Both the position numbers and the translations under genes were made by a program. Shown piece by piece: positions 1 to 8,429 of a stretch of DNA of 8,429 bases. Numbering within the stretch: position 1 is the stretch's first letter; each line of letters starts with the position of its first letter. The notes under the pieces are model-generated. The model was not told where the DNA came from. It saw only the letters and a program-made list of their open reading frames with translations, and made no database searches. Origin of the DNA: a virus (lineage: Duplodnaviria > Heunggongvirae > Uroviricota > Caudoviricetes); IMG/VR virus record IMGVR_UViG_3300029590_000173, positions 1 to 8,429 of that record, one strand, 5' to 3'.

Positions 1-17
1 AAGTTGGCAGCATCACC
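1..17 (-). mobile_element. Terminal 17 bp of a second IS1 copy (left inverted repeat, reverse-complemented); the body of that copy lies upstream of the window
   Basis: Bases 1-17 (AAGTTGGCAGCATCACC) are the exact reverse complement of bases 2473-2489 (GGTGATGCTGCCAACTT), the left end of the complete IS1 in this window. Only 17 bp are visible, so full versus solo end cannot be decided. Confidence 0.7.
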
Positions 18-288
18 CGAAATCACTTCATCAAGCACGTGTGTTGATGAGTACTTCAGGATCGGGTCGACGATCAAAACTGACCGGGTAATAGAACTGG
101 ATGGGGTAACTTACCCATATGTTACAATTGACGTTTCTTCTAAGTCGCATCCGTTCTATACAGGCAAACTGAGAACTGTTGCTTCAGAAGGTAATGTTGC
201 ACGCTTTACCCAGCGTTTTGGGCGTTTTGGGCGTTTTGGGCGTTTTGGGCGTTTTGGGCGTTTTGTTGATGCGAAAAAAGGCGGCTGA
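18..288 (+). CDS. rpmE2: 50S ribosomal protein L31 type B (RpmE2/YkgM-like), 3' fragment with a C-terminal (GRF)n expansion; 5' end abuts the IS1 end
   Basis: The translation ...[62 protein letters not shown]...KKGG matches my recollection of the non-zinc L31 paralog YkgM over about 65 residues. The stop is TGA at 286-288. The frame stays open back through the IS1 end to base 1, so the true start is not in the window. No rpmJ2/ykgO-like gene follows. Confidence 0.75.
214..265 (+). repeat. Perfect tandem repeat of the 9-bp unit CGTTTTGGG, 5 full copies plus a 7-bp partial copy, in frame within the L31B coding sequence
   Basis: Counted directly: units at 214-222, 223-231, 232-240, 241-249 and 250-258, then CGTTTTG at 259-265. 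The repeat encodes RFG/GRF repeats. Confidence 0.95.
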
Positions 289-589
289 TTTCGCCGCAAA
301 GGTGCGTTTGACAATTTTAAAACGGACCGGACAGAGAGAGCCTGCACCTGAATATACTGAGGTAGCCCGTCCCTCCGGGGCGTGCAGATGATCCCGTCAC
401 CAGAAGATTGCGGACCTCTCTGAAAACCAGTACATTACGCGCGGGTGCCTTTCGGCTGACGGCTGGAAGGATTACCTGAAGGCCGGATGTGGAAAGGCCC
501 CGGAAAACATCTCTGTTTAGCCGAGGCCCTAATCTACATACCTTTAGCAAGTAGAAGGTTAGCGCCTCTTTGAAAAAGGAGCAAGCGCT

Positions 590-730
590 ATGCCGCAAAA
601 AACGATCATCGTGAGCATTTTATGCTTAACCATGTTGTTGACCGTCTGGATGATACATCGTTCACCATGTGAATTCAGACTTAACATCATGTGGTCAGAA
701 TTTGCGGCGTTCTTGCAGTGTAAACCGTAA
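590..730 (+). CDS. Small hydrophobic protein (46 aa), Hok/Gef-family-like type I toxin candidate
   Basis: The ORF ATG 590 to TAA 728-730 was not in the supplied track because it is below the length cut-off. Translation: MPQKTIIVSILCLTMLLTVWMIHRSPCEFRLNIMWSEFAAFLQCKP. AGGAG at 577-581 sits 8 nt before the ATG. It has one N-terminal transmembrane segment followed by R-S-P-C-E-F-R and S-E-F-A-A-F, which resemble the Hok motifs R-K-x-L-C-E-I-R and E-V-A-A-F as I recall them. A GC-rich hairpin and an intrinsic terminator follow. Confidence 0.5.
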   Translation: MPQKTIIVSILCLTMLLTVWMIHRSPCEFRLNIMWSEFAAFLQCKP

Positions 731-824
731 GAAACCGCAGCGGGGGTGAAAGCCCCCGCTATCCGGTTGCCGAAGGTTCGGTCGAAAGCCGCACCCGTGC
801 ATGCAAGTGACAAAGAAAAAACAA

Positions 825-858
825 AGCCCGCAGCGTAAAAACTGCGGGCTTTTTTATT
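825..858 (+). terminator. Rho-independent terminator downstream of the hok-like ORF
   Basis: Stem AGCCCGCAG (825-833), loop CGTAAAAA, stem CTGCGGGCT (842-850), followed by TTTTT-ATT. Confidence 0.65.
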
Positions 859-896
859 CACATACCGAAGGTGTGGTAACTGCCTGGGTTCAGACC

Positions 897-921
897 AAAA
901 AAAGCCCCATAAAATGGGGCT
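897..921 (-). terminator. Rho-independent terminator for leftward (minus-strand) transcription, convergent with the plus-strand terminator
   Basis: On the minus strand: AGCCCCA, loop TTTTA, TGGGGCT, then TTTTTTT (the plus strand shows an A-run at 897-903). It lies about 300 nt downstream of the minus-strand operon end at 1217. Confidence 0.55.
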
Positions 922-1067
922 GAAGATTCTGTAAGGAATTTCACAGCAATGAGATTCTAGTCTCTTCCAATGATATATGAGTCTTCAGCCTGAATCAATG
1001 GGGCATGACTGTGAATCCACCGACGATCAAAACTTGCACAATGCCTGAAGTTGAGTTAGAAAAGTAC

Positions 1068-1128
1068 CGGGCGCGATATCCGGTTTATTTTTTGTTGCTG
1101 TGTTTTGCCTCGTGCCGGATATCGCGTC
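1068..1128. repeat. Imperfect 15-bp inverted repeat (GGGCGCGATATCCGG ... CCGGATATCGCGTCC) separated by a 31-nt T-rich spacer
   Basis: Arms at 1068-1082 and 1114-1128 are reverse complements at 14 of 15 positions. Each arm contains GATATC. Function unknown; possible large hairpin or protein-binding site at the GC/AT transition. Confidence 0.5.
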
Positions 1129-1216
1129 CACCGTCTTTCTGATGATTCTTATGAAATCGTACTTTATTGATTTACTGCCATCCTGGTTTGTCTTTTTATG
1201 TTCATTATTGCGACAG

Positions 1217-1612
1217 TCATTTCCTGTTTCTGGTGATGTTTTGATAAAAGTGAAAGAATAAAACGATCATTGCAGAAGGTATTGCTAAAACCATACATAT
1301 CATTATATAAACAAGATGAAAATGATATATACCATAAGACCAGAAAAAAGGTTTTTTCCAGAATGATATGGATGTGTATTTTAGTGTAATTGTTTTTGTC
1401 AGGTATATTGAACAAGGAAGAGCCAGGCCACTGAGTATCAGAAATAAGTCAACTTTTATCGATGCTTCTGTTGGTGTGTCATATATAAGATGCAATATGG
1501 ATATTATAATGGGGCACATTCCCCACAGGATATTTTTGAAATAGAATTTCCGGTTCATATGTTTATGCTCTTTGGTTTTATCCCGGGAATTGGCGCTTTG
1601 TTTTTTATTCAT
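1217..1612 (-). CDS. Hypothetical multi-pass membrane protein (131 aa, about 3 predicted transmembrane helices), low-GC, second gene of a two-gene operon
   Basis: Track ORF. The start overlaps the stop of the upstream ORF by 8 nt (ATG at 1612-1610 versus stop at 1607-1605). Hydrophobic stretches include ILWGMCPIIISILHLIY, VDLFLILSGLALPCSIYL and YGIYHFHLVYIMICMVLAIPSAMIVLFF. An alternative start at the internal Met (codon 18) is possible. No family recognised. Confidence 0.55.
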   Translation of the reverse strand: MNKKQSANSRDKTKEHKHMNRKFYFKNILWGMCPIIISILHLIYDTPTEASIKVDLFLILSGLALPCSIYLTKTITLKYTSISFWKKPFFWSYGIYHFHLVYIMICMVLAIPSAMIVLFFHFYQNITRNRK

Positions 1613-2276
1613 GAACGTTTTCGTTGTTTAATAACCATGGGGTATTATGATTATCCTTTATTTTTGATATGTAATTGTCAATAGTGGATTTCGTTTCATT
1701 ATTGTGGTTATAGTAATCATGAAGAGTGCAAAACACATCATCTTTTATTGTGGCGATTAATGGGGCTTGTGTGAGGGTAAAATATAAAGAACGATTACTT
1801 AGTGTCCTGAAATAAATTTTTTCGCCAATGACCAGATCGGTGTTCATTATATTGTAGCCTATTTCAAATATATTGTTTGATGGCATGTGTAATACATATG
1901 TGGGGTATTTGTTGTGTTTTTTCATTAAATAATAAATAAAATCAGATACAGGCATCTGTTTTAGTTTTTTTTGCATCTTCCTTATGTGTTGTGACATTAA
2001 TATCATTTTCGAGAGAATGCATAAGAGACTAAACAAGAGATTAAATACTATGTTCAGTACTATCAGAGTAACAAACAGGCCAATGCTCCTTAGCGCTGAA
2101 AATATATTGTCATTGTAAATATACTGGAATGTATATCCGGCTGATAAAAATGCCAATATATATAACACTATGTCTGTTTTATTTCGCTTTTTTATTTTGT
2201 AGGTTATTGCTGATTTTAAGAATAAGATGGCAATAAGAGCAGTGATAACCCAGAAAAATATAACGGAAACTTCCAT
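1605..2276 (-). CDS. Hypothetical membrane protein (223 aa): three N-terminal transmembrane helices plus a ~130-aa Asn/Lys/Tyr-rich soluble C-terminal domain; low-GC; first gene of the operon
   Basis: Track ORF. ATG at 2276-2274 with a weak AAGG upstream. Transmembrane segments around residues 3-20, 36-54 and 65-88. GC content is about 28%, against roughly 50% in the flanking DNA. No family recognised. Confidence 0.6.
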   Translation of the reverse strand: MEVSVIFFWVITALIAILFLKSAITYKIKKRNKTDIVLYILAFLSAGYTFQYIYNDNIFSALRSIGLFVTLIVLNIVFNLLFSLLCILSKMILMSQHIRKMQKKLKQMPVSDFIYYLMKKHNKYPTYVLHMPSNNIFEIGYNIMNTDLVIGEKIYFRTLSNRSLYFTLTQAPLIATIKDDVFCTLHDYYNHNNETKSTIDNYISKIKDNHNTPWLLNNENVHE

Positions 2277-2326
2277 AATTATACCTTTATCGTGTTTTCA
2301 GGGAGGTAATTTATCATTGTGCTGAT

Positions 2327-2346
2327 ATGCATGTAAATACATGCAT
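2327..2346. promoter_or_regulatory. Perfect 20-bp palindrome ATGCATGTA-AA-TACATGCAT, 51-70 bp upstream of the 223-aa membrane-protein gene; candidate operator in its promoter region
   Basis: The 9-bp arms are exact reverse complements with a 2-bp spacer. It lies in the 196-bp AT-rich gap between the ORF start (2276) and the IS1 left end (2473). Confidence 0.45.
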
Positions 2347-2527
2347 TATCTGTTTCTTATATTCTTTTTATGAAGTTACTGATTAATTTATATTAAAACA
2401 ACACATTCATAATGAAATCAACATGTTCATATGGTTGACGGCAGATTTCTCTTTTTGTTAACCTGCATCTGCGGTGATGCTGCCAACTTACTGATTTAGT
2501 GTATGATGGTGTTTTTGAGGTGCTCCA

Positions 2528-2803
2528 GTGGCTTCTGTTTCTATCAGCTGTCCCTCCTGTTCAGCTACTGACGGGGTGGTGCGTAACGGCAAAAGCACCG
2601 CCGGACATCAGCGCTATCTCTGCTCTCACTGCCGTAAAACATGGCAACTGCAGTTCACTTACACCGCTTCTCAACCCGGTACGCACCAGAAAATCATTGA
2701 TATGGCCATGAATGGCGTTGGATGCCGGGCAACCGCCCGCATTATGGGCGTTGGCCTCAACACGATTTTCCGCCATTTAAAAAACTCAGGCCGCAGTCGG
2801 TAA
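2528..2803 (+). CDS. insA: IS1 InsA protein (transposition inhibitor and N-terminal part of the InsAB' transposase)
   Basis: The 91-aa translation [43 protein letters not shown]... is the canonical InsA with its zinc-finger Cys motifs. Confidence 0.95.
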
Positions 2804-3225
2804 CCTCGCGCATACAGCCGGGCAGTGACGTCATCGTCTGCGCGGAAATGGACGAACAGTGGGGATACGTCGGGGCTAAATCGCGCCAGCGCTGGCTGTT
2901 TTACGCGTATGACAGGCTCCGGAAGACGGTTGTTGCGCACGTATTCGGTGAACGCACTATGGCGACGCTGGGGCGTCTTATGAGCCTGCTGTCACCCTTT
3001 GACGTGGTGATATGGATGACGGATGGCTGGCCGCTGTATGAATCCCGCCTGAAGGGAAAGCTGCACGTAATCAGCAAGCGATATACGCAGCGAATTGAGC
3101 GGCATAACCTGAATCTGAGGCAGCACCTGGCACGGCTGGGACGGAAGTCGCTGTCGTTCTCAAAATCGGTGGAGCTGCATGACAAAGTCATCGGGCATTA
3201 TCTGAACATAAAACACTATCAATAA
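2722..3225 (+). CDS. insB: IS1 InsB reading frame (expressed as the InsAB' transposase by a -1 frameshift at the A6C site)
   Basis: The track ORF translation ...[44 protein letters not shown]... is canonical IS1 InsB. The frameshift site lies at 2779-2785. Confidence 0.9.
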
Positions 3226-3240
3226 GTTGGAGTCATTACC

Positions 3241-3586
3241 TGAAGCGTTAATGCATGATGCAACAGAAGCGTATTGCCAGGACATCCCTGCTCCACTGAA
3301 ACGCCTTCTTCCTGACTATAAACGGATGGAAGAAAAAATAGACGCCGTAATCCGTGAGAAATACGGGTTACCTCCTGTTATGAGCACGCCAGTGAAATAT
3401 GCCGATCTCATTATGCTGGCAACCGAACGTCGCGATCTCGGGCTTGATGATGGCTCTTTCTGGCCTGTACTGGAAGGTATCCCGGCGACAGAGATGTTCA
3501 AAGTTATTCCACTGTCACCAGGCCATGCCTACGGGATGTTTATGGAACGTTTTAACGAGTTATCGGAGTTACGCAAATGCGCATGA
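3241..3586 (+). pseudogene. 3' remnant of an HD-domain phosphohydrolase-like prophage gene, decapitated by the IS1 insertion
   Basis: The reading frame runs uninterrupted from inside the IS1 right end, and the apparent start at 3227 is IS1 sequence. The remaining translation begins PEALMHDATEAYCQDIPAPLKRLLPDY..., which carries an HD-type metal-binding motif (H-D-x-x-E-x-x-x-x-D-I-P). The N-terminal half is missing. Confidence 0.5.
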
Positions 3587-3939
3587 ATGTTTTCGAAATG
3601 GAAGGGTTTCTTCGCGGGAAATGTGTACCACGAGATCTGAAAGTGAATGAAACAAATGCTGAGTACCTGGTACGTAAATTCGATGCGCTTGAAGCTAAAT
3701 GTGCGGCACTGGAAAACAAAATAATACCAGTGTCAGCTGAACTGCCGCCAGCAAATGAAAGTGTTCTGTTATTTGATGCTAACGGAGAAGGCTGGCTAAT
3801 TGGCTGGCGTTCTCTCTGGTACACCTGGGGACAAAAAGAAACCGGAGAATGGCTGTGGACATTTCAGGTCGGGGACCTTGAAAACGTCAATATCACTCAC
3901 TGGGCAGTAATGCCGAAAGCACCGAAGAATAAAAAATGA
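3577..3939 (+). CDS. Prophage protein with a C-terminal Trp-rich domain resembling DUF551
   Basis: Track ORF with GGAG 8 nt upstream; it overlaps the previous stop. The C-terminus GEGWLIGWRSLWYTWGQKETGEWLWTFQ...ITHWAVMPKAPK fits the Trp-rich phage domain I recall as DUF551 (ending THWMPLP-like). Confidence 0.5.
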   Translation: MRMNVFEMEGFLRGKCVPRDLKVNETNAEYLVRKFDALEAKCAALENKIIPVSAELPPANESVLLFDANGEGWLIGWRSLWYTWGQKETGEWLWTFQVGDLENVNITHWAVMPKAPKNKK

Positions 3940-4139
3940 GCGTGATAAAAACTCATACAGGAATTGTTATCACCCGAGACGGTCCGCAGGTAAAAAAACT
4001 GCACCAGACAAAGCGGATGTGGGTCGTCGGAAAAAACGAGTTTTACCACAAAGAAACCGGACGCCGCCACTTTGCAGAAAATACTCGCCGCCGACTGCTG
4101 ATCGATACCATCAAGCCTATCGAGGTGAAGCATGTTTAA
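3936..4139 (+). CDS. Hypothetical prophage protein (67 aa)
   Basis: Track ORF. Its ATG overlaps the upstream stop (ATGA), typical of translationally coupled phage operons. No family recognised. Confidence 0.4.
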   Translation: MSVIKTHTGIVITRDGPQVKKLHQTKRMWVVGKNEFYHKETGRRHFAENTRRRLLIDTIKPIEVKHV

Positions 4140-4371
4140 ACAGAACGAAAAATCTATCGCTCAAATTGCTGAGTATATCCCGCGTGCGTGCCGGGATATG
4201 CAGTTGCAGGAAGCCAAAGCACGCCTGGAGAAAAAAATTGCGCTCTATATCGATGACGGCTGTGATGCCGCCGTTCTTAACGCGGCGTTCGCGCCAGCTC
4301 TTAACAGTCATACGCGAAAGTCTTTTTTTTCGTGCATCGCAGCGCAGATCCGTAAAGGAGGCAACCAGTGA
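4132..4371 (+). CDS. Hypothetical prophage protein (79 aa)
   Basis: Track ORF. Its start overlaps the upstream stop (ATGTTTAA) and its stop overlaps the next gene's GTG start. No family recognised. Confidence 0.4.
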   Translation: MFKQNEKSIAQIAEYIPRACRDMQLQEAKARLEKKIALYIDDGCDAAVLNAAFAPALNSHTRKSFFSCIAAQIRKGGNQ

Positions 4372-4967
4372 GCAACATTAACTATCAGGTACTGCGTGAA
4401 AAGGCAGAGAAAGCAACTAAAGGAAGCTACATCGTAGGGCATACATCTGTTAACCAACACGGCAATTTAACAGGAGTTTTTGTTTGTCAAAAATGGAAAG
4501 GAGAACCCGGTGGCGTAATTGCAGAATGTCACGTTAACTGCCTGGTTGAAACAGATGCTCAGGCTTATGCAAACGCTGAATTCATAGCAGAGGCTAACCC
4601 GGCTACCGTGCTGGCACTGCTGGATGAACAGGAAAGAAACCAGCAATACATCAAACGCCGCGACCAGGAGAACGAGGATATTGCGCTAACGGTAGGGAAG
4701 CTGCGCGTTGAGCTTGAGGAGACAAAATCAAAACTCAACGAGCAGCGCGAGTATTACGAGGGAGTTATCTCTGATGGGTGCAAGCGTATTGCTGAACTGG
4801 AAGCGCGGGAAGTTCAATTACCGACTCGCTACGACCTTCGATATGGACACCCGATAAATGCAGATGAGCGACAAGTCATGATACCTAAAGAAAATGGCAG
4901 TTGGCTTTACCTGATTGACCTAGAACACGCATTACGCGTCGCTGACATTCGCATCAAAGGAGAGTGA
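4368..4967 (+). CDS. Ead/Ea22-like prophage accessory protein (199 aa)
   Basis: GTG start with a strong AAGGAGG 6 nt upstream. The N-terminus MSNINYQVLREKAEKATKG... and the central coiled-coil region match my recollection of lambdoid Ead/Ea22-like proteins encoded between int/xis and the recombination genes. Confidence 0.55.
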   Translation: MSNINYQVLREKAEKATKGSYIVGHTSVNQHGNLTGVFVCQKWKGEPGGVIAECHVNCLVETDAQAYANAEFIAEANPATVLALLDEQERNQQYIKRRDQENEDIALTVGKLRVELEETKSKLNEQREYYEGVISDGCKRIAELEAREVQLPTRYDLRYGHPINADERQVMIPKENGSWLYLIDLEHALRVADIRIKGE

Positions 4968-4968
4968 T

Positions 4969-5484
4969 ATGGCGTTAACACACCACGAACTCTGTCAGAT
5001 TGCGTACAAGTTCCTTAAGCGCAACGGGTTCAAGGTTTGCTTTCATGACCGCTTTGTTGCTGTAACCAGTACCGGAGAACAGCCAGATGCTATGGGATTC
5101 AGAAATTCAGCATCATGCCTGATAGAGGCGAAGTGTTCTCGTGCTGACTTGTTGGCAGATAGAAAAAAGCGTTTCCGTAAAAATCCCTCACTTGGCATGG
5201 GCGACTGGCGATTCTTTATTAGTGAGCCGGAAATTATTTCAGTTGAGGATTTACCTCCCGGCTGGGGATTACTTCACGTTGTTAACGGAAGAGTACGGAA
5301 AGTACATGGATGGCCCAGGGGTAATTGCTGTTGGGGTAATCCTGACGATAAGCCATTTACTGGGAATAAGCAGGTTGAATGCGATTACATGTTATCTGCA
5401 TTAAGGCGCATGGAGTTGAGAGGGCACCTTAATGAAATATATGACGGTGTGATTGTTAATAAGAAAGAAGGAAACGCGGCATGA
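4969..5484 (+). CDS. Hypothetical prophage protein (171 aa); possible PD-(D/E)xK nuclease fold
   Basis: AGGAG 6 nt upstream; starts 1 nt after the Ea22-like stop. The sequence contains ...GEQPDAMGF...CLIEAKCSRADL..., which is compatible with a PD-x(n)-E-x-K catalytic motif. This is a motif-level inference only. Confidence 0.35.
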   Translation: MALTHHELCQIAYKFLKRNGFKVCFHDRFVAVTSTGEQPDAMGFRNSASCLIEAKCSRADLLADRKKRFRKNPSLGMGDWRFFISEPEIISVEDLPPGWGLLHVVNGRVRKVHGWPRGNCCWGNPDDKPFTGNKQVECDYMLSALRRMELRGHLNEIYDGVIVNKKEGNAA

Positions 5485-6239
5485 TCACTATTACCAAAGG
5501 GCGACTGCTGACAATCAAGCAGTGGCGCGAAACATACGGACCGGGTAGCAACGTTGTACTGCCAGCAGAAGAAGCGGAAGAACTGGCACGAATTGCTCTG
5601 GTATCGCTGGAAGCAGAGCCGGTGGCAAAGATTATAGCTCATTACCCATTAGGAGTTGACGTAGGCAAACAAAAGTTCGTACAGGCCATTGGAGAGCTTC
5701 CTGACTTTGGCGGATATCTATTTGCCGCCCCGCCAGCGCCGGTAGTGCCGGAAGAAGCAACTCCGGAAAACGTAGAAATGCTCTCTGGCTATGTTTCCAC
5801 GTACAAATTAACCGATAGCGAGCGCGATATTGCTGCCGAAATATGGAACGCCTGCCGCACCGCCATGCTTCAGTCCGGAAACTTTCGGGAAAGCAAGAAT
5901 TCGTCAACCAATAATTTTCGGGAAATCCCGGAAGCGTCAACCAGCTCTCCGGTAACTCCGGCTCTTCTGCCTGGTGGTTTCACCATTGAGGAGGCGAAGG
6001 AATTACATGAAGACCTGGTACGCAGCCACATAAGCAAGGCCTTAAGTGGCGAAAAGATGAAAAAGAAAGATCGCGATGCTGATTTGCGCTGGATTCATGG
6101 CGTTATAGTTCAGGCAGCGTGGTTTGTAAAAGCATCACTGGAGCAGAATGCACTATCGGGCAACTCTCCGGTAACTCCGGATGGTTGGATAAGCTGTAGT
6201 GAGCGAATGCCGGACGACAGGCAGGAGGTGAATCAATGA
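5481..6239 (+). CDS. Hypothetical prophage protein (252 aa) with internal short repeats and a C-terminus that looks like the start of a DUF551-type domain
   Basis: ATG overlaps the upstream stop (ATGA) with GAAGGA upstream. It contains exact 17-bp direct repeats at 5945-5961 and 6164-6180 (encoding SPVTP) and ends ...SPVTPDGWISCSERMPDD before the stop at 6237-6239. Confidence 0.5.
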   Translation: MITITKGRLLTIKQWRETYGPGSNVVLPAEEAEELARIALVSLEAEPVAKIIAHYPLGVDVGKQKFVQAIGELPDFGGYLFAAPPAPVVPEEATPENVEMLSGYVSTYKLTDSERDIAAEIWNACRTAMLQSGNFRESKNSSTNNFREIPEASTSSPVTPALLPGGFTIEEAKELHEDLVRSHISKALSGEKMKKKDRDADLRWIHGVIVQAAWFVKASLEQNALSGNSPVTPDGWISCSERMPDDRQEVNQ

Positions 6240-6319
6240 GCTGGCCTGATGCAATCGTAACTCTGGGGGTGGTATTCGCAGCAGCGTTTGTTGTGTTCTC
6301 GATTTGTCGATGGGGATAA
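6236..6319 (+). CDS. Small single-transmembrane peptide (27 aa, MSWPDAIVTLGVVFAAAFVVFSICRWG); candidate host-targeting small membrane peptide
   Basis: Not in the track because it is short. AGGAGG at 6222-6227 sits 8 nt before ATG 6236. The ATG overlaps the upstream stop (ATGA), and the stop TAA at 6317-6319 lies 4 nt before the next ATG (6324). Confidence 0.4.
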   Translation: MSWPDAIVTLGVVFAAAFVVFSICRWG

Positions 6320-6323
6320 CCAC

Positions 6324-6566
6324 ATGTTCGCTTTGATTCAACGCGGTCAGATATACACGGACAGAGCCGGATACCCCGTGGTGATTACTCGCATCACTGA
6401 GCACTCAGTGTTCTTTCGACGGGTGGACGGACGATCCGGGCGGGTACGCATTGGTGAGTTAAACTGCCTGTTCGAACATATTGACCACCAGGAGTACCGC
6501 AAAATTCTCGCGGACACTGAGCAGGAAAAGCACCTGAAAAAATTACGAGCCATAAAAAGGAAGTAA
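6324..6566 (+). CDS. Hypothetical prophage protein (81 aa from ATG 6324; the track's TTG start at 6288 is less likely)
   Basis: Track ORF 6288..6566. The ATG at 6324 follows the small-peptide stop by 4 nt. Translation: MFALIQRGQIYTDRAGYPVVITRITEHSVFFRRVDGRSGRVRIGELNCLFEHIDHQEYRK... No family assigned with confidence. Confidence 0.45.
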   Translation: MFALIQRGQIYTDRAGYPVVITRITEHSVFFRRVDGRSGRVRIGELNCLFEHIDHQEYRKILADTEQEKHLKKLRAIKRK

Positions 6567-6569
6567 AGA

Positions 6570-6704
6570 ATGAATAAAGCATTTGAACGATGGGTCCACC
6601 AGCGTTACGGCAATCACTATGACCTGACGCGAGATGTTGATGGCTTCTACTGTCGTGAAGTTGTGAAGCGAATGTTTGAAATGTGGTGCCACTGCCGTGG
6701 ATGA
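6570..6704 (+). CDS. Small Cys/His-containing protein (44 aa, MNKAFERWVHQRYGNHYDLTRDVDGFYCREVVKRMFEMWCHCRG)
   Basis: Not in the track because it is short. AAGGAAG lies about 7 nt upstream, and the ATG is 4 nt after the previous stop. C-x(13)-C-H-C could be a metal-binding knuckle. Weak call. Confidence 0.3.
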   Translation: MNKAFERWVHQRYGNHYDLTRDVDGFYCREVVKRMFEMWCHCRG

Positions 6705-6722
6705 AAGTTTTATGAGGTTGGC

Positions 6723-6977
6723 ATGCAGACAATCATCTATCAGATAACCCCCAGCAAATGGTGTACGGAGAGAGTCCTTATTGCATCAACAGGGCTAAAG
6801 CCCGGCACCATCGAGCGGGCCAGAAGAAAGTCATGGATGCAGGGAAAAGAATACCGCCATTACGCTGTAGAAGGTGATCCTGGGCATTACAGTGAATGCC
6901 TGTACAACATCGAAGAAATTATGCGATGGATCGAAAACCAGAAACAACCAGGTGCCAAAAATGCAAGTTCCGGTTAA
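6723..6977 (+). CDS. xis: Excisionase-like (Xis) protein, 84 aa
   Basis: It sits immediately upstream of int and is co-oriented with it, the canonical xis position. The N-terminus MQTIIYQITPSKWCTERV... resembles the putative-excisionase family of enterobacterial prophages as I recall it. Confidence 0.5.
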   Translation: MQTIIYQITPSKWCTERVLIASTGLKPGTIERARRKSWMQGKEYRHYAVEGDPGHYSECLYNIEEIMRWIENQKQPGAKNASSG

Positions 6978-7010
6978 CCTGTTAATGCTCCTGGACGTCT
7001 GGGAGGTTTA

Positions 7011-8315
7011 ATGAGTAACGTATCATACCCGACAGGCGTTGAAAACCATGGAGGATCACTCCGTATATGGTTTCACTATAATGGCAAACGTGTCAGAGAA
7101 AACCTCGGTGTTCCTGACACCGCCAAAAACCGGAAGATCGCAGGTGAACTTCGCACTTCCGTTTGTTTTGCAATCAGAATGGGGAGTTTCGACTACGCTA
7201 CACAGTTCCCTAATTCCCCTAACCTGAAACACTTTGGTCTGGGAAAAAGAGAGATAACCGTTAAGGCACTTTCGGAAAAATGGTTGGACCTTAAGAAAAT
7301 TGAGATTTGTGCGAATGCACTTAATCGTTACCAGTCAGTAATTAAAAACATGTTGCCTATGTTGGGTGAGAAAAAACTGGTTTCATCCATAACAAAAGAG
7401 GATTTACTTTTCGCAAGGAGAGATTTGTTGACCGGTTACCAAAAGCTTTCTAATGGAAAGATTTCTTCCATAAAAGGGCGCTCAGTGGTCACAGTAAACT
7501 ACTATATGACAACCATAGCTGGAATGTTTCAATTTGCAACAGATAATGGTTATACCTCAGGAAACCCATTTAACGGTCTGGCCCCCTTAAAAAAGTCCAA
7601 GGTAAAACCAGATCCTCTCACCCGTGACGAATTTATTCGTTTTATTGAGGCTTGCCGTCATCAACAAACAAAAAACCTGTGGATTCTCGCTGTATACACG
7701 GGTATTCGTCACGGGGAGCTGGTATCGCTGGCATGGGAAGATATAGATCTTAAAGCAAGGACTATAACCATCCGTAGGAATTATACAAAACTTGGCGAAT
7801 TCACTCCACCAAAAACCGATGCTGGCACCGGAAGGACAATTCATCTGGTTCAACCAGCTATTGATGCTCTTAAAAGTCAGGCGGAAATGACCATGCTTGG
7901 AAAGCAACATTCTGTAGAGGTAAAGCAGAGGGAATATGGGAGAAGNNNNNNNNNNNNNNNNNNNNNNNNNNNNNNNNNCACTTTTGTTTTTAGTCCTCAG
8001 GTAATAAAACAGCGGCAGTTTTCCGGACCGCACTATAAGGTTGACTCCATCAGGGAGTCATGGACAAGTATCTTAAAACGCGCAGGTCTGAGACACAGAA
8101 AATCGTACCAATCCAGGCATACTTATGCATGCTGGTCACTTGCCGCTGGAGCTAATCCTAGTTTTATCGCAAGCCAGATGGGCCACACAAACGCACAAAT
8201 GGTATTCAATGTTTACGGAGCATGGATGAAAGACAACAATCACGAACAGATAGAACTCCTTAACAAAAGACTATCTGAAAGTGTCCCATGTATGCCCCAT
8301 AAGAAAGCTGGGTAA
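7011..8315 (+). CDS. int: Phage integrase, tyrosine site-specific recombinase (lambda Int family); the reading frame spans a 33-N gap
   Basis: GGGAGG Shine-Dalgarno before ATG 7011. The C-terminal catalytic region carries ...LAVYTGIRHGELVSLAWEDIDL... (Arg box) and ...HTYACWSLAAGANPSFIASQMGHTNAQMVFNVYGAWM... (H-x-x-R ... Y motifs). Ns at 7946-7978 fall inside the gene. Confidence 0.9.
   Translation: MSNVSYPTGVENHGGSLRIWFHYNGKRVRENLGVPDTAKNRKIAGELRTSVCFAIRMGSFDYATQFPNSPNLKHFGLGKREITVKALSEKWLDLKKIEICANALNRYQSVIKNMLPMLGEKKLVSSITKEDLLFARRDLLTGYQKLSNGKISSIKGRSVVTVNYYMTTIAGMFQFATDNGYTSGNPFNGLAPLKKSKVKPDPLTRDEFIRFIEACRHQQTKNLWILAVYTGIRHGELVSLAWEDIDLKARTITIRRNYTKLGEFTPPKTDAGTGRTIHLVQPAIDALKSQAEMTMLGKQHSVEVKQREYGRXXXXXXXXXXXXTFVFSPQVIKQRQFSGPHYKVDSIRESWTSILKRAGLRHRKSYQSRHTYACWSLAAGANPSFIASQMGHTNAQMVFNVYGAWMKDNNHEQIELLNKRLSESVPCMPHKKAG
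7946..7978. other. Run of 33 N (assembly gap or masked bases) inside the integrase gene
   Basis: Seen directly. Because 33 is a multiple of 3 the frame appears preserved, but the true length and content are unknown. Confidence 0.99.
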
Positions 8316-8360
8316 AATAAAAACTTGCAAAATCAATTAGTTTACCCTTAATCCCTGTCA
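8316..8360. other. Prophage-chromosome junction (attL-type) region between the integrase stop and the resumption of mlrA-like sequence
   Basis: Position immediately 3' of int, and the point where the downstream frame begins to read as MlrA (about 8354). The exact core cannot be defined without the other junction. Confidence 0.35.
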
Positions 8361-8429
8361 CGTTACGCGCGTGGCAGAGGCGTTACGGATTGCTGAAACC
8401 GCAACGGACAGACGGCGGTCATCGGCTGT
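8354..8429 (+). pseudogene. mlrA: Fragment of the MerR-family curli regulator gene mlrA (yehV), helix-turn-helix region; its 5' end is replaced by prophage sequence and it runs off the window
   Basis: The in-frame translation [25 protein letters not shown] matches the MlrA N-terminal HTH region as I remember it ([42 protein letters not shown]...). The upstream in-frame codons ([11 protein letters not shown]) do not match and contain no start codon back to the stop at 8318-8320. Confidence 0.6.

Follow-up and report, generated by a model that had tools for sequence, protein, structure and literature searches.

A conserved 27-codon reading frame of E. coli, Shigella and Salmonella phages, carried on a portable Shine-Dalgarno cassette, is predicted to encode a single-pass membrane microprotein

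The viral DNA analyzed in this study (Caudoviricetes; IMG/VR record IMGVR_UViG_3300029590_000173, positions 1 to 8,429) is a stretch of 8,429 nucleotides, hereafter the window, that comes from the remnant of a lambdoid prophage and spans its left end, on the early-left, int-proximal side. At positions 6236-6319 of its plus strand, the window contains a 27-codon open reading frame (ORF), hereafter the microORF. The reading frame, the length, the Shine-Dalgarno (SD) sequence and the start and stop codons of the microORF are kept across highly diverged copies, which display the signature of purifying selection. With comparative genomics as the sole line of evidence, we regard the 27-codon frame with high confidence as a real coding gene. 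The product of the gene is very probably a single-pass microprotein of the inner membrane, judging from its residue composition, and the gene appears to travel among phages together with its SD.

The microORF and its predicted product consist of the following elements.

6223-6228, plus strand: consensus Shine-Dalgarno sequence AGGAGG, separated from the ATG by the 7-nt spacer TGAATCA and embedded in the 3'-terminal codons of the gene before it (...QEVNQ*)
6236-6319, plus strand: putative microprotein gene (ATG at 6236-6238, TAA at 6317-6319) with the predicted product MSWPDAIVTLGVVFAAAFVVFSICRWG
6236-6253, plus strand: acidic N-terminal tail M-S-W-P-D-A (M-x-W-P-[DE]-A in the family), predicted to be periplasmic
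6254-6307, plus strand: hydrophobic core, residues 7-24, IVTLGVVFAAAFVVFSIC, predicted to form a single transmembrane (TM) helix
6308-6316, plus strand: C-terminal R-W-G, the one part of the peptide with a basic residue and thus, under the positive-inside rule, the predicted cytoplasmic end

The TGA codon of the upstream gene (6237-6239) overlaps the ATG of the microORF in an ATGA arrangement. In the microORF frame, a stop codon occupies positions 6200-6202, and the ATG at 6236 is the first start codon after that stop. Because no earlier start is available, a longer form is impossible in the window, and only the 27-aa product can be generated. The first-pass annotation of the window had called the ORF on the basis of an AGGAGG before the ATG, a start codon that overlaps the upstream stop and a stop codon 4 nt before the next ATG, and it was correct in every one of these details. 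An AGGAGG-N5-9-ATG arrangement occurs once in the window and at least once in 44 of 200 shuffles. An arrangement that is so frequent in shuffled sequences is weak evidence by itself, and the case for the gene thus rests on conservation across phages.

Diverged copies of the microORF provide this evidence. The DNA of the corresponding gap in phage YYZ-2008 is ~65% identical to that of the window and still encodes MMNWPEAFTAVGVAIAVAFILYSLFRWG, with GGAGG upstream and the ATGA overlap. Homologous ORFs of 27 or 28 aa are present in YYZ-2008, PhiR12_1, 933W, Av-05 and ArgO145, some of them in the corresponding unannotated gap and others at unrelated locations, and the 933W copy, MTWPEAFANVGTVMAVVLVVYSICRWR, is located just upstream of hokW/sokW. 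In all, 61 distinct DNA sequences and 37 distinct peptides were recovered, with more than 120 loci contributed by two pattern scans of the IMG/VR collection. Exactly 27 codons are found in 119 of the 121 homologous copies that contain the SD and the first five codons, as was required for this comparison; the other two copies have premature stops, and no copy has an indel. This length is maintained even though copies can be as little as 57-65% identical in nucleotide sequence. Selection tests were confined to the 18 codons that were unconstrained by the search patterns. In this core, the ratio of nonsynonymous to synonymous polymorphism (pN/pS) is 0.425 for the sense frame and ranges from 0.8 to 2.0 for the +1 frame, the +2 frame and two antisense frames, mostly with stops. 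Pairwise ratios of nonsynonymous to synonymous substitution (dN/dS) between the main types are mostly 0.07-0.6 at nucleotide identities of 57-79%. Parsimony steps on a neighbor-joining tree number 45, 29 and 88 at codon positions 1, 2 and 3, respectively (chi2 = 34.5, p = 3e-8), and on a minimum spanning tree, 102 of the 205 changes between codons are synonymous, a fraction of 0.50 compared with an expected 24% (p = 2e-15). The first-pass annotation had named conservation of the peptide and its SD in related prophages as a check and a lack of frame conservation, with no synonymous-site pattern, as grounds for refutation; the frame, the length and the SD are kept, and the synonymous-site pattern is present.

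The boundaries of this conservation coincide with those of the SD and the ORF. When 39 contexts, thinned at 85% identity, are aligned on the start codon, the mean pairwise identity is 0.31-0.42 from -60 to -19, rises to 0.85 at the SD (-12 to -7), is 0.73-1.0 across the ORF and drops to 0.31 from the first base past the stop onward. GGAGG is found upstream in nearly all of the contexts listed. The start codon of the microORF overlaps or abuts the stop codon of an upstream gene in 166 of 166 copies, which bears out the earlier suggestion that the ORF fits the coupling pattern of its operon. The upstream genes are unrelated to one another and provide at least eight kinds of C-termini, including the following.

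DUF551/Ea22-type proteins ending in ...LPEPPQEVNQ*
The truncated form of the window, ending in ...MPDDRQEVNQ*
An unrelated family ending in ...GLISVEDILR*
933W p77, ending in ...LKNIEQKVNQ*
The Av-05 protein, ending in ...KKGMNQ*

Several further upstream protein types exist beyond these five, and the ending EV[NKR]Q of the upstream proteins is the SD read in another frame. On the downstream side, the copies fall into 27 junction classes, which include the following.

DUF4222 gene at +4 (55 of 166 copies)
hok/mok/sok locus, with a promoter that starts just past the stop (46 of 166 copies, including 933W and Sp5)
A second small TM ORF (21 of 166 copies)
Another gene that overlaps the microORF stop
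Terminator-like GC hairpins with T runs (~25 copies)

Similarity extends from the SD to the stop codon, and the genes on either side can be exchanged; what is moved by recombination and maintained by selection is therefore the SD plus the ORF. This unit of ~97 bp is, in our assessment, very probably a portable cassette and not a filler for one particular gene pair. The first-pass annotation missed this point, namely that the ORF follows many unrelated genes.

Two of the downstream classes include further small elements. In the MIWPEAF... and MNWPEAFAITG... variants from IMG/VR (the 21 of 166 copies above), a second small hydrophobic ORF (MSDDISLAMEGALAVIAVVGVYCLVVFLMD...) follows after ~35 nt with a GGAGG of its own, and some phages thus contain two consecutive TM microORFs. 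In 933W (NC_000924.1, 58832-58909), O157:H7 and Sp5-type sequences, the cassette ends 6 nt before a promoter-like element, TTGCGG-17-TAGAAT, and ~40 nt past this element lies GCTTGAGGC, a motif typical of the 5' end of hok mRNA. The hokW-sokW locus, which has been studied, therefore has an unannotated coding neighbor immediately upstream.

The predicted peptide consists of a short acidic tail, an 18-residue core rich in Ala, Val, Ile and Gly and a basic C-terminal end. The family consensus is M-[TSN]-W-P-[ED]-A-[FIL]-x-x-[VL]-G-x-[AV]-x-A-x-A-[LF]-x-[VL]-[YF]-S-I-C-R-W-G. Near-invariant positions that the search did not impose are A6, G11, A15, A17, [LF]18, [YF]21, S22, I23, C24 and R25; A6 occurs in 37 of 37 peptides and R25 in 36 of 37, neither of which was imposed by the final search pattern. 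Positions 1, 3-5 (W3, P4 and D/E5) and 26, which the search patterns fixed in part, are present in pattern-free tblastn matches as well. In the window peptide, the core (residues 7-24) has a mean Kyte-Doolittle (KD) hydropathy of 2.68 and an approximate Hessa sum of -1.85 kcal/mol, and the grand average of hydropathy (GRAVY) of the whole peptide is 1.46. Core KD values range from 1.4 to 2.8 among the family, and charged or strongly polar residues make up 1.1% of core residues. The single-transmembrane character that the first-pass annotation assigned to the peptide is thus upheld as a sequence-based prediction. An N-out/C-in topology is predicted by the positive-inside rule because D/E5 and R25 are the sole charges. 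One face of the helix contains residues G11, A15, [LF]18 and S22, and the positions that vary most (8, 12, 16 and 19) are on the other side. Such a face would suit helix-helix packing, and a single conserved binding face is suggested, although no more than suggested, by this arrangement. A lipoprotein or secreted peptide was considered and rejected: the N-terminal tail is acidic, with no lipobox or basic n-region, F/Y-S-I precedes C24 with an Ile at -1 that is disallowed in a lipobox, and cleavage would leave three residues.

The microORF is widespread in Escherichia and its phages. A tblastn search with the peptide identifies it in 70-93 phage genomes, among them 933W, VT2-Sakai (Sp5), Min27, BP-4795, ArgO145, PhiR phages and the virulent Vequintavirinae phage Av-05; YYZ-2008 and VT1-Sakai-type phages also carry the microORF. 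In every phage match inspected, the first position coincides with the stop codon of the annotated gene before it, and the match itself is unannotated. By blastn with the SD and ORF, the cassette is found in at least 1007 of 5426 complete E. coli genomes, at 1349 places, with up to four per genome and 150 on plasmids. In PLSDB, tblastn detects it in 181 plasmids, of which 155 are from Escherichia (E. albertii and E. fergusonii included), 25 from Salmonella and one from Klebsiella; these plasmids are mostly non-mobilizable and ~90-100 kb in size, consistent with phage-plasmids. A scan of one genome per species yields true members in Escherichia and Shigella only. Matches in other genera were dismissed as chance matches with internal stops, and two tiny contigs labeled Xanthomonas and Acinetobacter look like contamination. 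The CPS-53 prophage of E. coli K-12 (yfdR-yfdS-yfdT-ypdJ-torI) is devoid of the microORF. At 2498-2644 of the K-12 CPS-53 sequence, a 48-aa 'toxic protein YodE' is annotated; other prophage microproteins of similar size are thus already named, unlike the present family.

The microORF has largely escaped annotation. The 84-nt gap is unannotated in close RefSeq relatives and in the YYZ-2008 and PhiR12_1 records, and the microORF is annotated in none of the PGAP/RefSeq loci inspected. The description 'unannotated' given by the first-pass annotation therefore holds for every RefSeq/PGAP locus inspected, as does its remark that gene callers miss the ORF, since standard annotation lacks it; the description does not extend to a few GenBank records, which list a 'hypothetical', 'bacteriophage' or 'prophage' protein (for example, ASL58468.1, AOM45384.1, EIL24003.1 and CAL6704654.1). 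The RefSeq entry WP_250221393.1 is a 45-aa start-extended version. A homologue search with a concatenated three-variant query returned 16 'hypothetical protein' entries only, each start-extended or fused through a frameshift or deletion. The peptide has no significant match in Pfam, NCBIfam, PHROG or PADLOC and no sequence match in the Protein Data Bank (PDB), with phrog_35838 as the best match (E = 0.085). In a Pfam-A scan of two variants at E<=10, the window peptide has no match, and the YYZ variant has two weak unrelated ones (E = 0.07 and 0.28). No paper that mentions the peptide was found, including reviews and papers on the exo-xis region, the hokW-sokW paper and a review on phage small proteins. 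The family is thus effectively undescribed, whereas its kind, phage-encoded small membrane proteins, is already known. Clusters at 90% identity place the peptide together with DUF551 proteins, including 121-aa and 185-aa members. A fusion to DUF551 proteins was rejected because those members end in ...PEPPQEVNQ and do not contain the peptide. The co-clustering is an artifact, and the likely bridge consists of incomplete ORFs at the ends of contigs that run through the junction in the frame of the microORF, which calls for caution among users of such clusters.

What could be the biological function of a 27-residue membrane peptide that is encoded behind so many different genes? The microORF would be transcribed with the early-left (exo-xis/ea) operon. 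Because no promoter was found for it, the peptide would be produced after induction or infection and not in a repressed lysogen. Since the start codon always overlaps or abuts the upstream stop, translation would occur by termination-reinitiation in step with the upstream gene, and expression by such coupling is probable. The product would be inserted as a single-span peptide into the inner membrane and would engage a conserved host or phage membrane protein through helix-helix contacts. As temperate lambdoid phages, phage-plasmids and a virulent phage all carry the cassette next to changing neighbors, the target would be a conserved inner-membrane component of Enterobacteriaceae and not a phage-specific one. 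Candidate targets include the divisome, the DNA-entry/phosphotransferase system (PTS) route used in superinfection and the FtsH/HflKC system, and the possible outcomes would be superinfection exclusion, division delay or an effect on FtsH-dependent decisions. The microprotein would then act as a non-essential accessory factor of host takeover or exclusion. By analogy with MgtR, AcrZ and SidA, we tentatively propose a partner-binding modulator, an assignment that is plausible but still short of probable. The composite statement, in which a coupled gene on a portable cassette encodes a TM peptide that serves as a modulator, is slightly favored as a whole. A bolder version, which we consider quite improbable, envisions a portable effector that docks on one conserved inner-membrane machine of Enterobacteriaceae (such as the ManYZ/PtsG DNA-entry route, the divisome or FtsH-HflKC) and thereby sets exclusion, the lysis-lysogeny decision or Stx-phage (Shiga toxin phage) release, and that would rank among the smallest autonomous mosaic units, ~97 bp, exchanged by lambdoid phages, phage-plasmids and Vequintavirinae.

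Conservation at this site could also originate from something other than a sense-strand gene, for instance an ORF on the antisense strand, an RNA with a conserved structure or a site in the DNA such as a recombination hotspot. Antisense ORFs do cross the site in the window (6233-6325, 30 aa; 6153-6404, 83 aa), and the wobble-aligned antisense frame has a low pN/pS of 0.376 and no core stops. However, a TM frame on the sense strand would be expected to produce this low value as its mirror image, and the openness of the antisense frame is automatic given that sense NTN codons become antisense ANN codons, which are never stops. In 37 thinned contexts, moreover, the wobble-aligned antisense ORF uses 17 start positions and 22 stop positions and could span the block in 12 of the 37, and the codon-complement antisense frame (the 30-aa ORF at 6233-6325) is interrupted by stops in 13 of 61 sequences, with a pN/pS of 0.94. 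A 3-periodic substitution pattern would not be expected for a DNA site. The site has no Rfam match at E<=1, no promoter- or terminator-like site was found near the microORF (the promoter search covered both strands), and RNA folding is no better than in shuffled controls on either strand (z = 0.33 and 0.98). A non-coding or antisense origin is thus extremely improbable. A related alternative is a translational relay, in which the act of translation hands ribosomes downstream or unmasks a start codon and the peptide itself is functionless. The arrangement in the window is suited to a relay, with the upstream ATGA overlap, the 4-nt gap to the next ATG and the last codons TGG GGA TAA, which provide a weak SD-like GGGGA for the DUF4222 gene, a neighbor at +4 in 55 of 166 copies. 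A relay would not account for the purifying selection on the peptide, its conserved motifs or its constant length; in more than half of the copies no gene follows closely, and what comes next is the promoter region of a hok locus, a hairpin resembling a terminator or DNA that is non-coding; similarity ends at the stop codon and not at the downstream start. We therefore consider a pure relay very improbable. A chance ORF in a short intergenic gap would be compatible with the shuffle count, in which one SD-like arrangement in 8.4 kb is not improbable, but it is refuted by the conserved length, pN/pS, codon-position pattern and boundaries, and its likelihood is practically negligible. A programmed -1 frameshift that fuses the microORF to the upstream protein was also considered and rejected. 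In the window, 11 codons before the ATG are open in the microORF frame, but a slippery heptamer is lacking, and the genes that precede the microORF differ from context to context without being related.

If the microORF is indeed a gene, the main rival to the partner-binding modulator is a toxin that acts in bulk on the membrane, by depolarization or permeabilization, in the manner of type I toxins (Ibs, ShoB, TisB, DinQ and Hok) or that blocks division as do Kil, DicB and SidA. We consider such a toxin possible but unlikely. In size and extreme hydrophobicity, the peptide resembles Ibs-, ShoB- and DinQ-class peptides. The early-left accessory region is where kil-type genes occur, a hok/sok locus is the immediate downstream neighbor of the microORF in 46 of the 166 contexts, and the cassette is also found in the virulent phage Av-05, in which host damage would be cost-free. 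On the other side, there is no homology to any toxin or Kil family; the lack of a significant Pfam-A match means no detectable homology to curated families, any Kil family in that library included. The features that define type I systems, namely an antisense RNA, a promoter of its own and a leader that represses translation, were not found for the ORF. The hok promoter starts only past the microORF stop, so the adjacency to hok represents a junction and not a shared unit. The core contains no charged or polar residues that could line a pore, and the ORF is intact in decayed prophages, including the IS1-truncated one of the window, and in 119 of 121 copies. Lambda Kil, moreover, is not a membrane peptide but a soluble peptide directed at FtsZ and ZipA (PMC3961180). 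The interpretation of the first-pass annotation is thus supported in part: a real, conserved, coupled gene for a TM microprotein is well founded, whereas the suggested Kil-like role finds no support in homology.

Several points weigh against our overall interpretation of the microORF as a gene for a membrane modulator. Some of the copies were collected by searches whose patterns prescribe the initial codons and those for R-W, and the invariance at positions 1, 3-5 and 26 is consequently not independent evidence. A pN/pS of ~0.4 represents moderate constraint only. Direct evidence of translation or of the peptide is absent, and the peptide is not in the supplements of ribosome profiling (Ribo-seq) of enterohemorrhagic E. 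coli (EHEC) or of the Enterobacteriaceae microproteome; the EHEC Ribo-seq search for new small genes took only ORFs of at least 30 aa (PMC5597208). The topology call rests on one Arg and one Asp/Glu, and the helical periodicity of conservation is not significant (permutation p = 0.22). Finally, no partner gene co-varies with the cassette, which makes the proposed target a matter of pure inference.

The gene content of the window places the microORF between accessory genes of the ea region and the excision-integration genes, as listed below.

2528-3225, plus strand: IS1 (insertion sequence) insA/insB, which abuts and cuts the yfdR-like fragment
3227-3586, plus strand: yfdR-like fragment, a 5'-deoxynucleotidase gene of which only the C-terminal part is left
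3577-3939, plus strand: DUF551/YfdS-like gene
Between the 3577-3939 gene and the Ead/Ea22 gene, plus strand: two small genes
4368-4967, plus strand: Ead/Ea22 gene
4969-5484, plus strand: gene
5481-6239, plus strand: 252-aa EaA/Ea22-region gene, directly upstream of the microORF
6236-6319, plus strand: 27-codon ORF, TAA included
6324-6566, plus strand: DUF4222 gene, with its ATG 4 nt past the microORF stop, one of more than 12 neighbors that can follow the cassette
6570-6704, plus strand: 44-aa ORF
6723-6977, plus strand: DUF1233 excisionase gene
7011-8315, plus strand: tyrosine integrase gene

Consecutive genes of the window overlap or abut in the style of a phage operon. Because IS1 abuts a yfdR-like gene that retains only its C-terminal part, the prophage is an IS1-truncated remnant. 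The whole window is contiguous in no complete E. coli genome of the collection, in which only 3241-8429 finds matches, at 97-99% identity. The protein encoded at 5481-6239 matches the DUF551 profile at the first 16 of 68 positions only and then continues directly into ...DDRQEVNQ*. The gene appears to have lost an internal part of its DUF551 domain through a deletion that spared the microORF cassette. Its N-terminus is common to the protein upstream of the Av-05 microORF copy.

Other observations concern parts of the window apart from the microORF. The 5481-6239 protein contains near-duplicate segments, GNFRESKNSSTNNFREI...SPVTP and GNSPVTP. A run of 33 N (masked or unknown bases) at 7946-7978 lies within the integrase gene and gives X residues in the 7011-8315 translation. 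A perfect 9-nt tandem repeat, GCGTTTTGG x 5.9, is located at 213-265 in the 3' end of a ykgM (L31 paralogue) frame, and its repeat number looks expanded relative to K-12 YkgM. Downstream of ykgM, positions 443-730 look like a hok/sok-type locus; the Rfam sok model RF01794 matches 443-600 on the plus strand with 47.7 bits (E = 1.9e-8), which is below the gathering score of 59, and a 46-aa Hok-like ORF (MPQKTIIVSILCLTMLLTVWMIHRSPCEFRLN...) follows this match at 590-730. Between the hok-like locus and IS1, the minus strand of 1217-2276 contains two AT-rich ORFs of 131 and 223 aa with multiple hydrophobic stretches.

The microORF occurs in medically important Stx phages and in about one-fifth of complete E. 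coli genomes, yet it is absent from RefSeq annotation and from curated families. It is a clear case in which comparative genomics alone suffices to show that a microprotein gene is coding, and it shows that phage mosaicism can act on a unit as small as an SD and 27 codons. The exo-xis/ea accessory region influences Stx-phage development. If the microprotein does modulate a membrane machine of the host, it would add a membrane-embedded member to this poorly understood region.

Phages and bacteria produce small membrane and host-directed proteins of several classes, with which the microprotein can be compared. Holins are encoded in the lysis cassette beside endolysin or spanin genes, usually consist of at least 60 aa and have a charged C-terminal tail. 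The microORF encodes 27 aa and, in all annotated loci, resides in the early-left/exo-xis locus with xis-int, hok or ea neighbors, an arrangement that does not correspond to a holin, antiholin or pinholin. The Pf3 coat protein also has a short acidic N-terminal tail, one hydrophobic helix and a basic C-terminal end in an N-out/C-in orientation. It is, however, a 44-aa virion protein of a filamentous phage that is inserted by YidC, and the likeness of the predicted microprotein is confined to the topology design.

At the level of genome organization, the cassette resembles lambdoid morons or mosaic modules in being a self-contained accessory unit found in varying places with sharp homology boundaries. 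A classical moron, however, brings along a promoter and a terminator and is expressed from the prophage. The cassette carries an SD only: no promoter-like site was found, the homology block starts at the SD, and terminator-like hairpins are present in some contexts only. The cassette would instead rely on transcription from the upstream gene and on translation by coupling.

Type I toxins (Hok/Gef, Ibs, ShoB, TisB, DinQ and Ldr) share with the predicted product a size of 18-50 aa and a single hydrophobic inner-membrane helix, and the values of the microprotein (GRAVY 1.46, core KD 2.68) correspond to a small hydrophobic membrane peptide by prediction. They differ in that each is transcribed from a promoter of its own, with a structured leader, and is countered by an antisense RNA antitoxin, whereas the microORF has a strong exposed SD and is translationally coupled within an operon; neither an antisense antitoxin, an own promoter nor family homology was found for it. 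The exclusion proteins T4 Imm, HK97 gp15 and P22 SieA are likewise phage proteins of the inner membrane, made early or from the prophage, and occur in temperate and virulent phages. They are, however, larger than 80 aa, some span the membrane several times and several are expressed from the prophage; the microORF has no homology to them, and no promoter was found for it.

Lambda Kil, Rac KilR and Qin DicB, which inhibit division or other host processes, are encoded in early operons of lambdoid phages or in operons of cryptic prophages; all three are small, non-essential and directed at the host, as the microprotein may be. Kil (47 aa), KilR and DicB are soluble and act on FtsZ, ZipA or MinC (PMC3961180), in contrast to the 27-aa predicted TM helix. 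Kil is located between gam and cIII in the pL operon, whereas the microORF adjoins xis/DUF4222, hok or terminators; in the position between DUF551-type and DUF4222 genes, with 27 aa, a hydrophobic core and no homology, it does not conform to the Kil family. DicB also protects against phage by inhibiting the inner-membrane receptor ManYZ (PMC6832061), which is an outcome of the kind that we propose for the microprotein.

The small membrane regulators MgtR, MgtS, AcrZ, KdpF, CydX and Caulobacter SidA (29 aa) are shorter than 50 aa and contain one TM helix, and the microprotein, as predicted from its sequence, agrees with them in both respects. These regulators are chromosomal and mostly co-encoded or co-regulated with their partner, whereas the microprotein belongs to a mobile cassette with no constant neighbor and shows no homology to them. 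Small membrane regulators pack against a larger membrane protein, and this mode of action serves as our working model for the microprotein.

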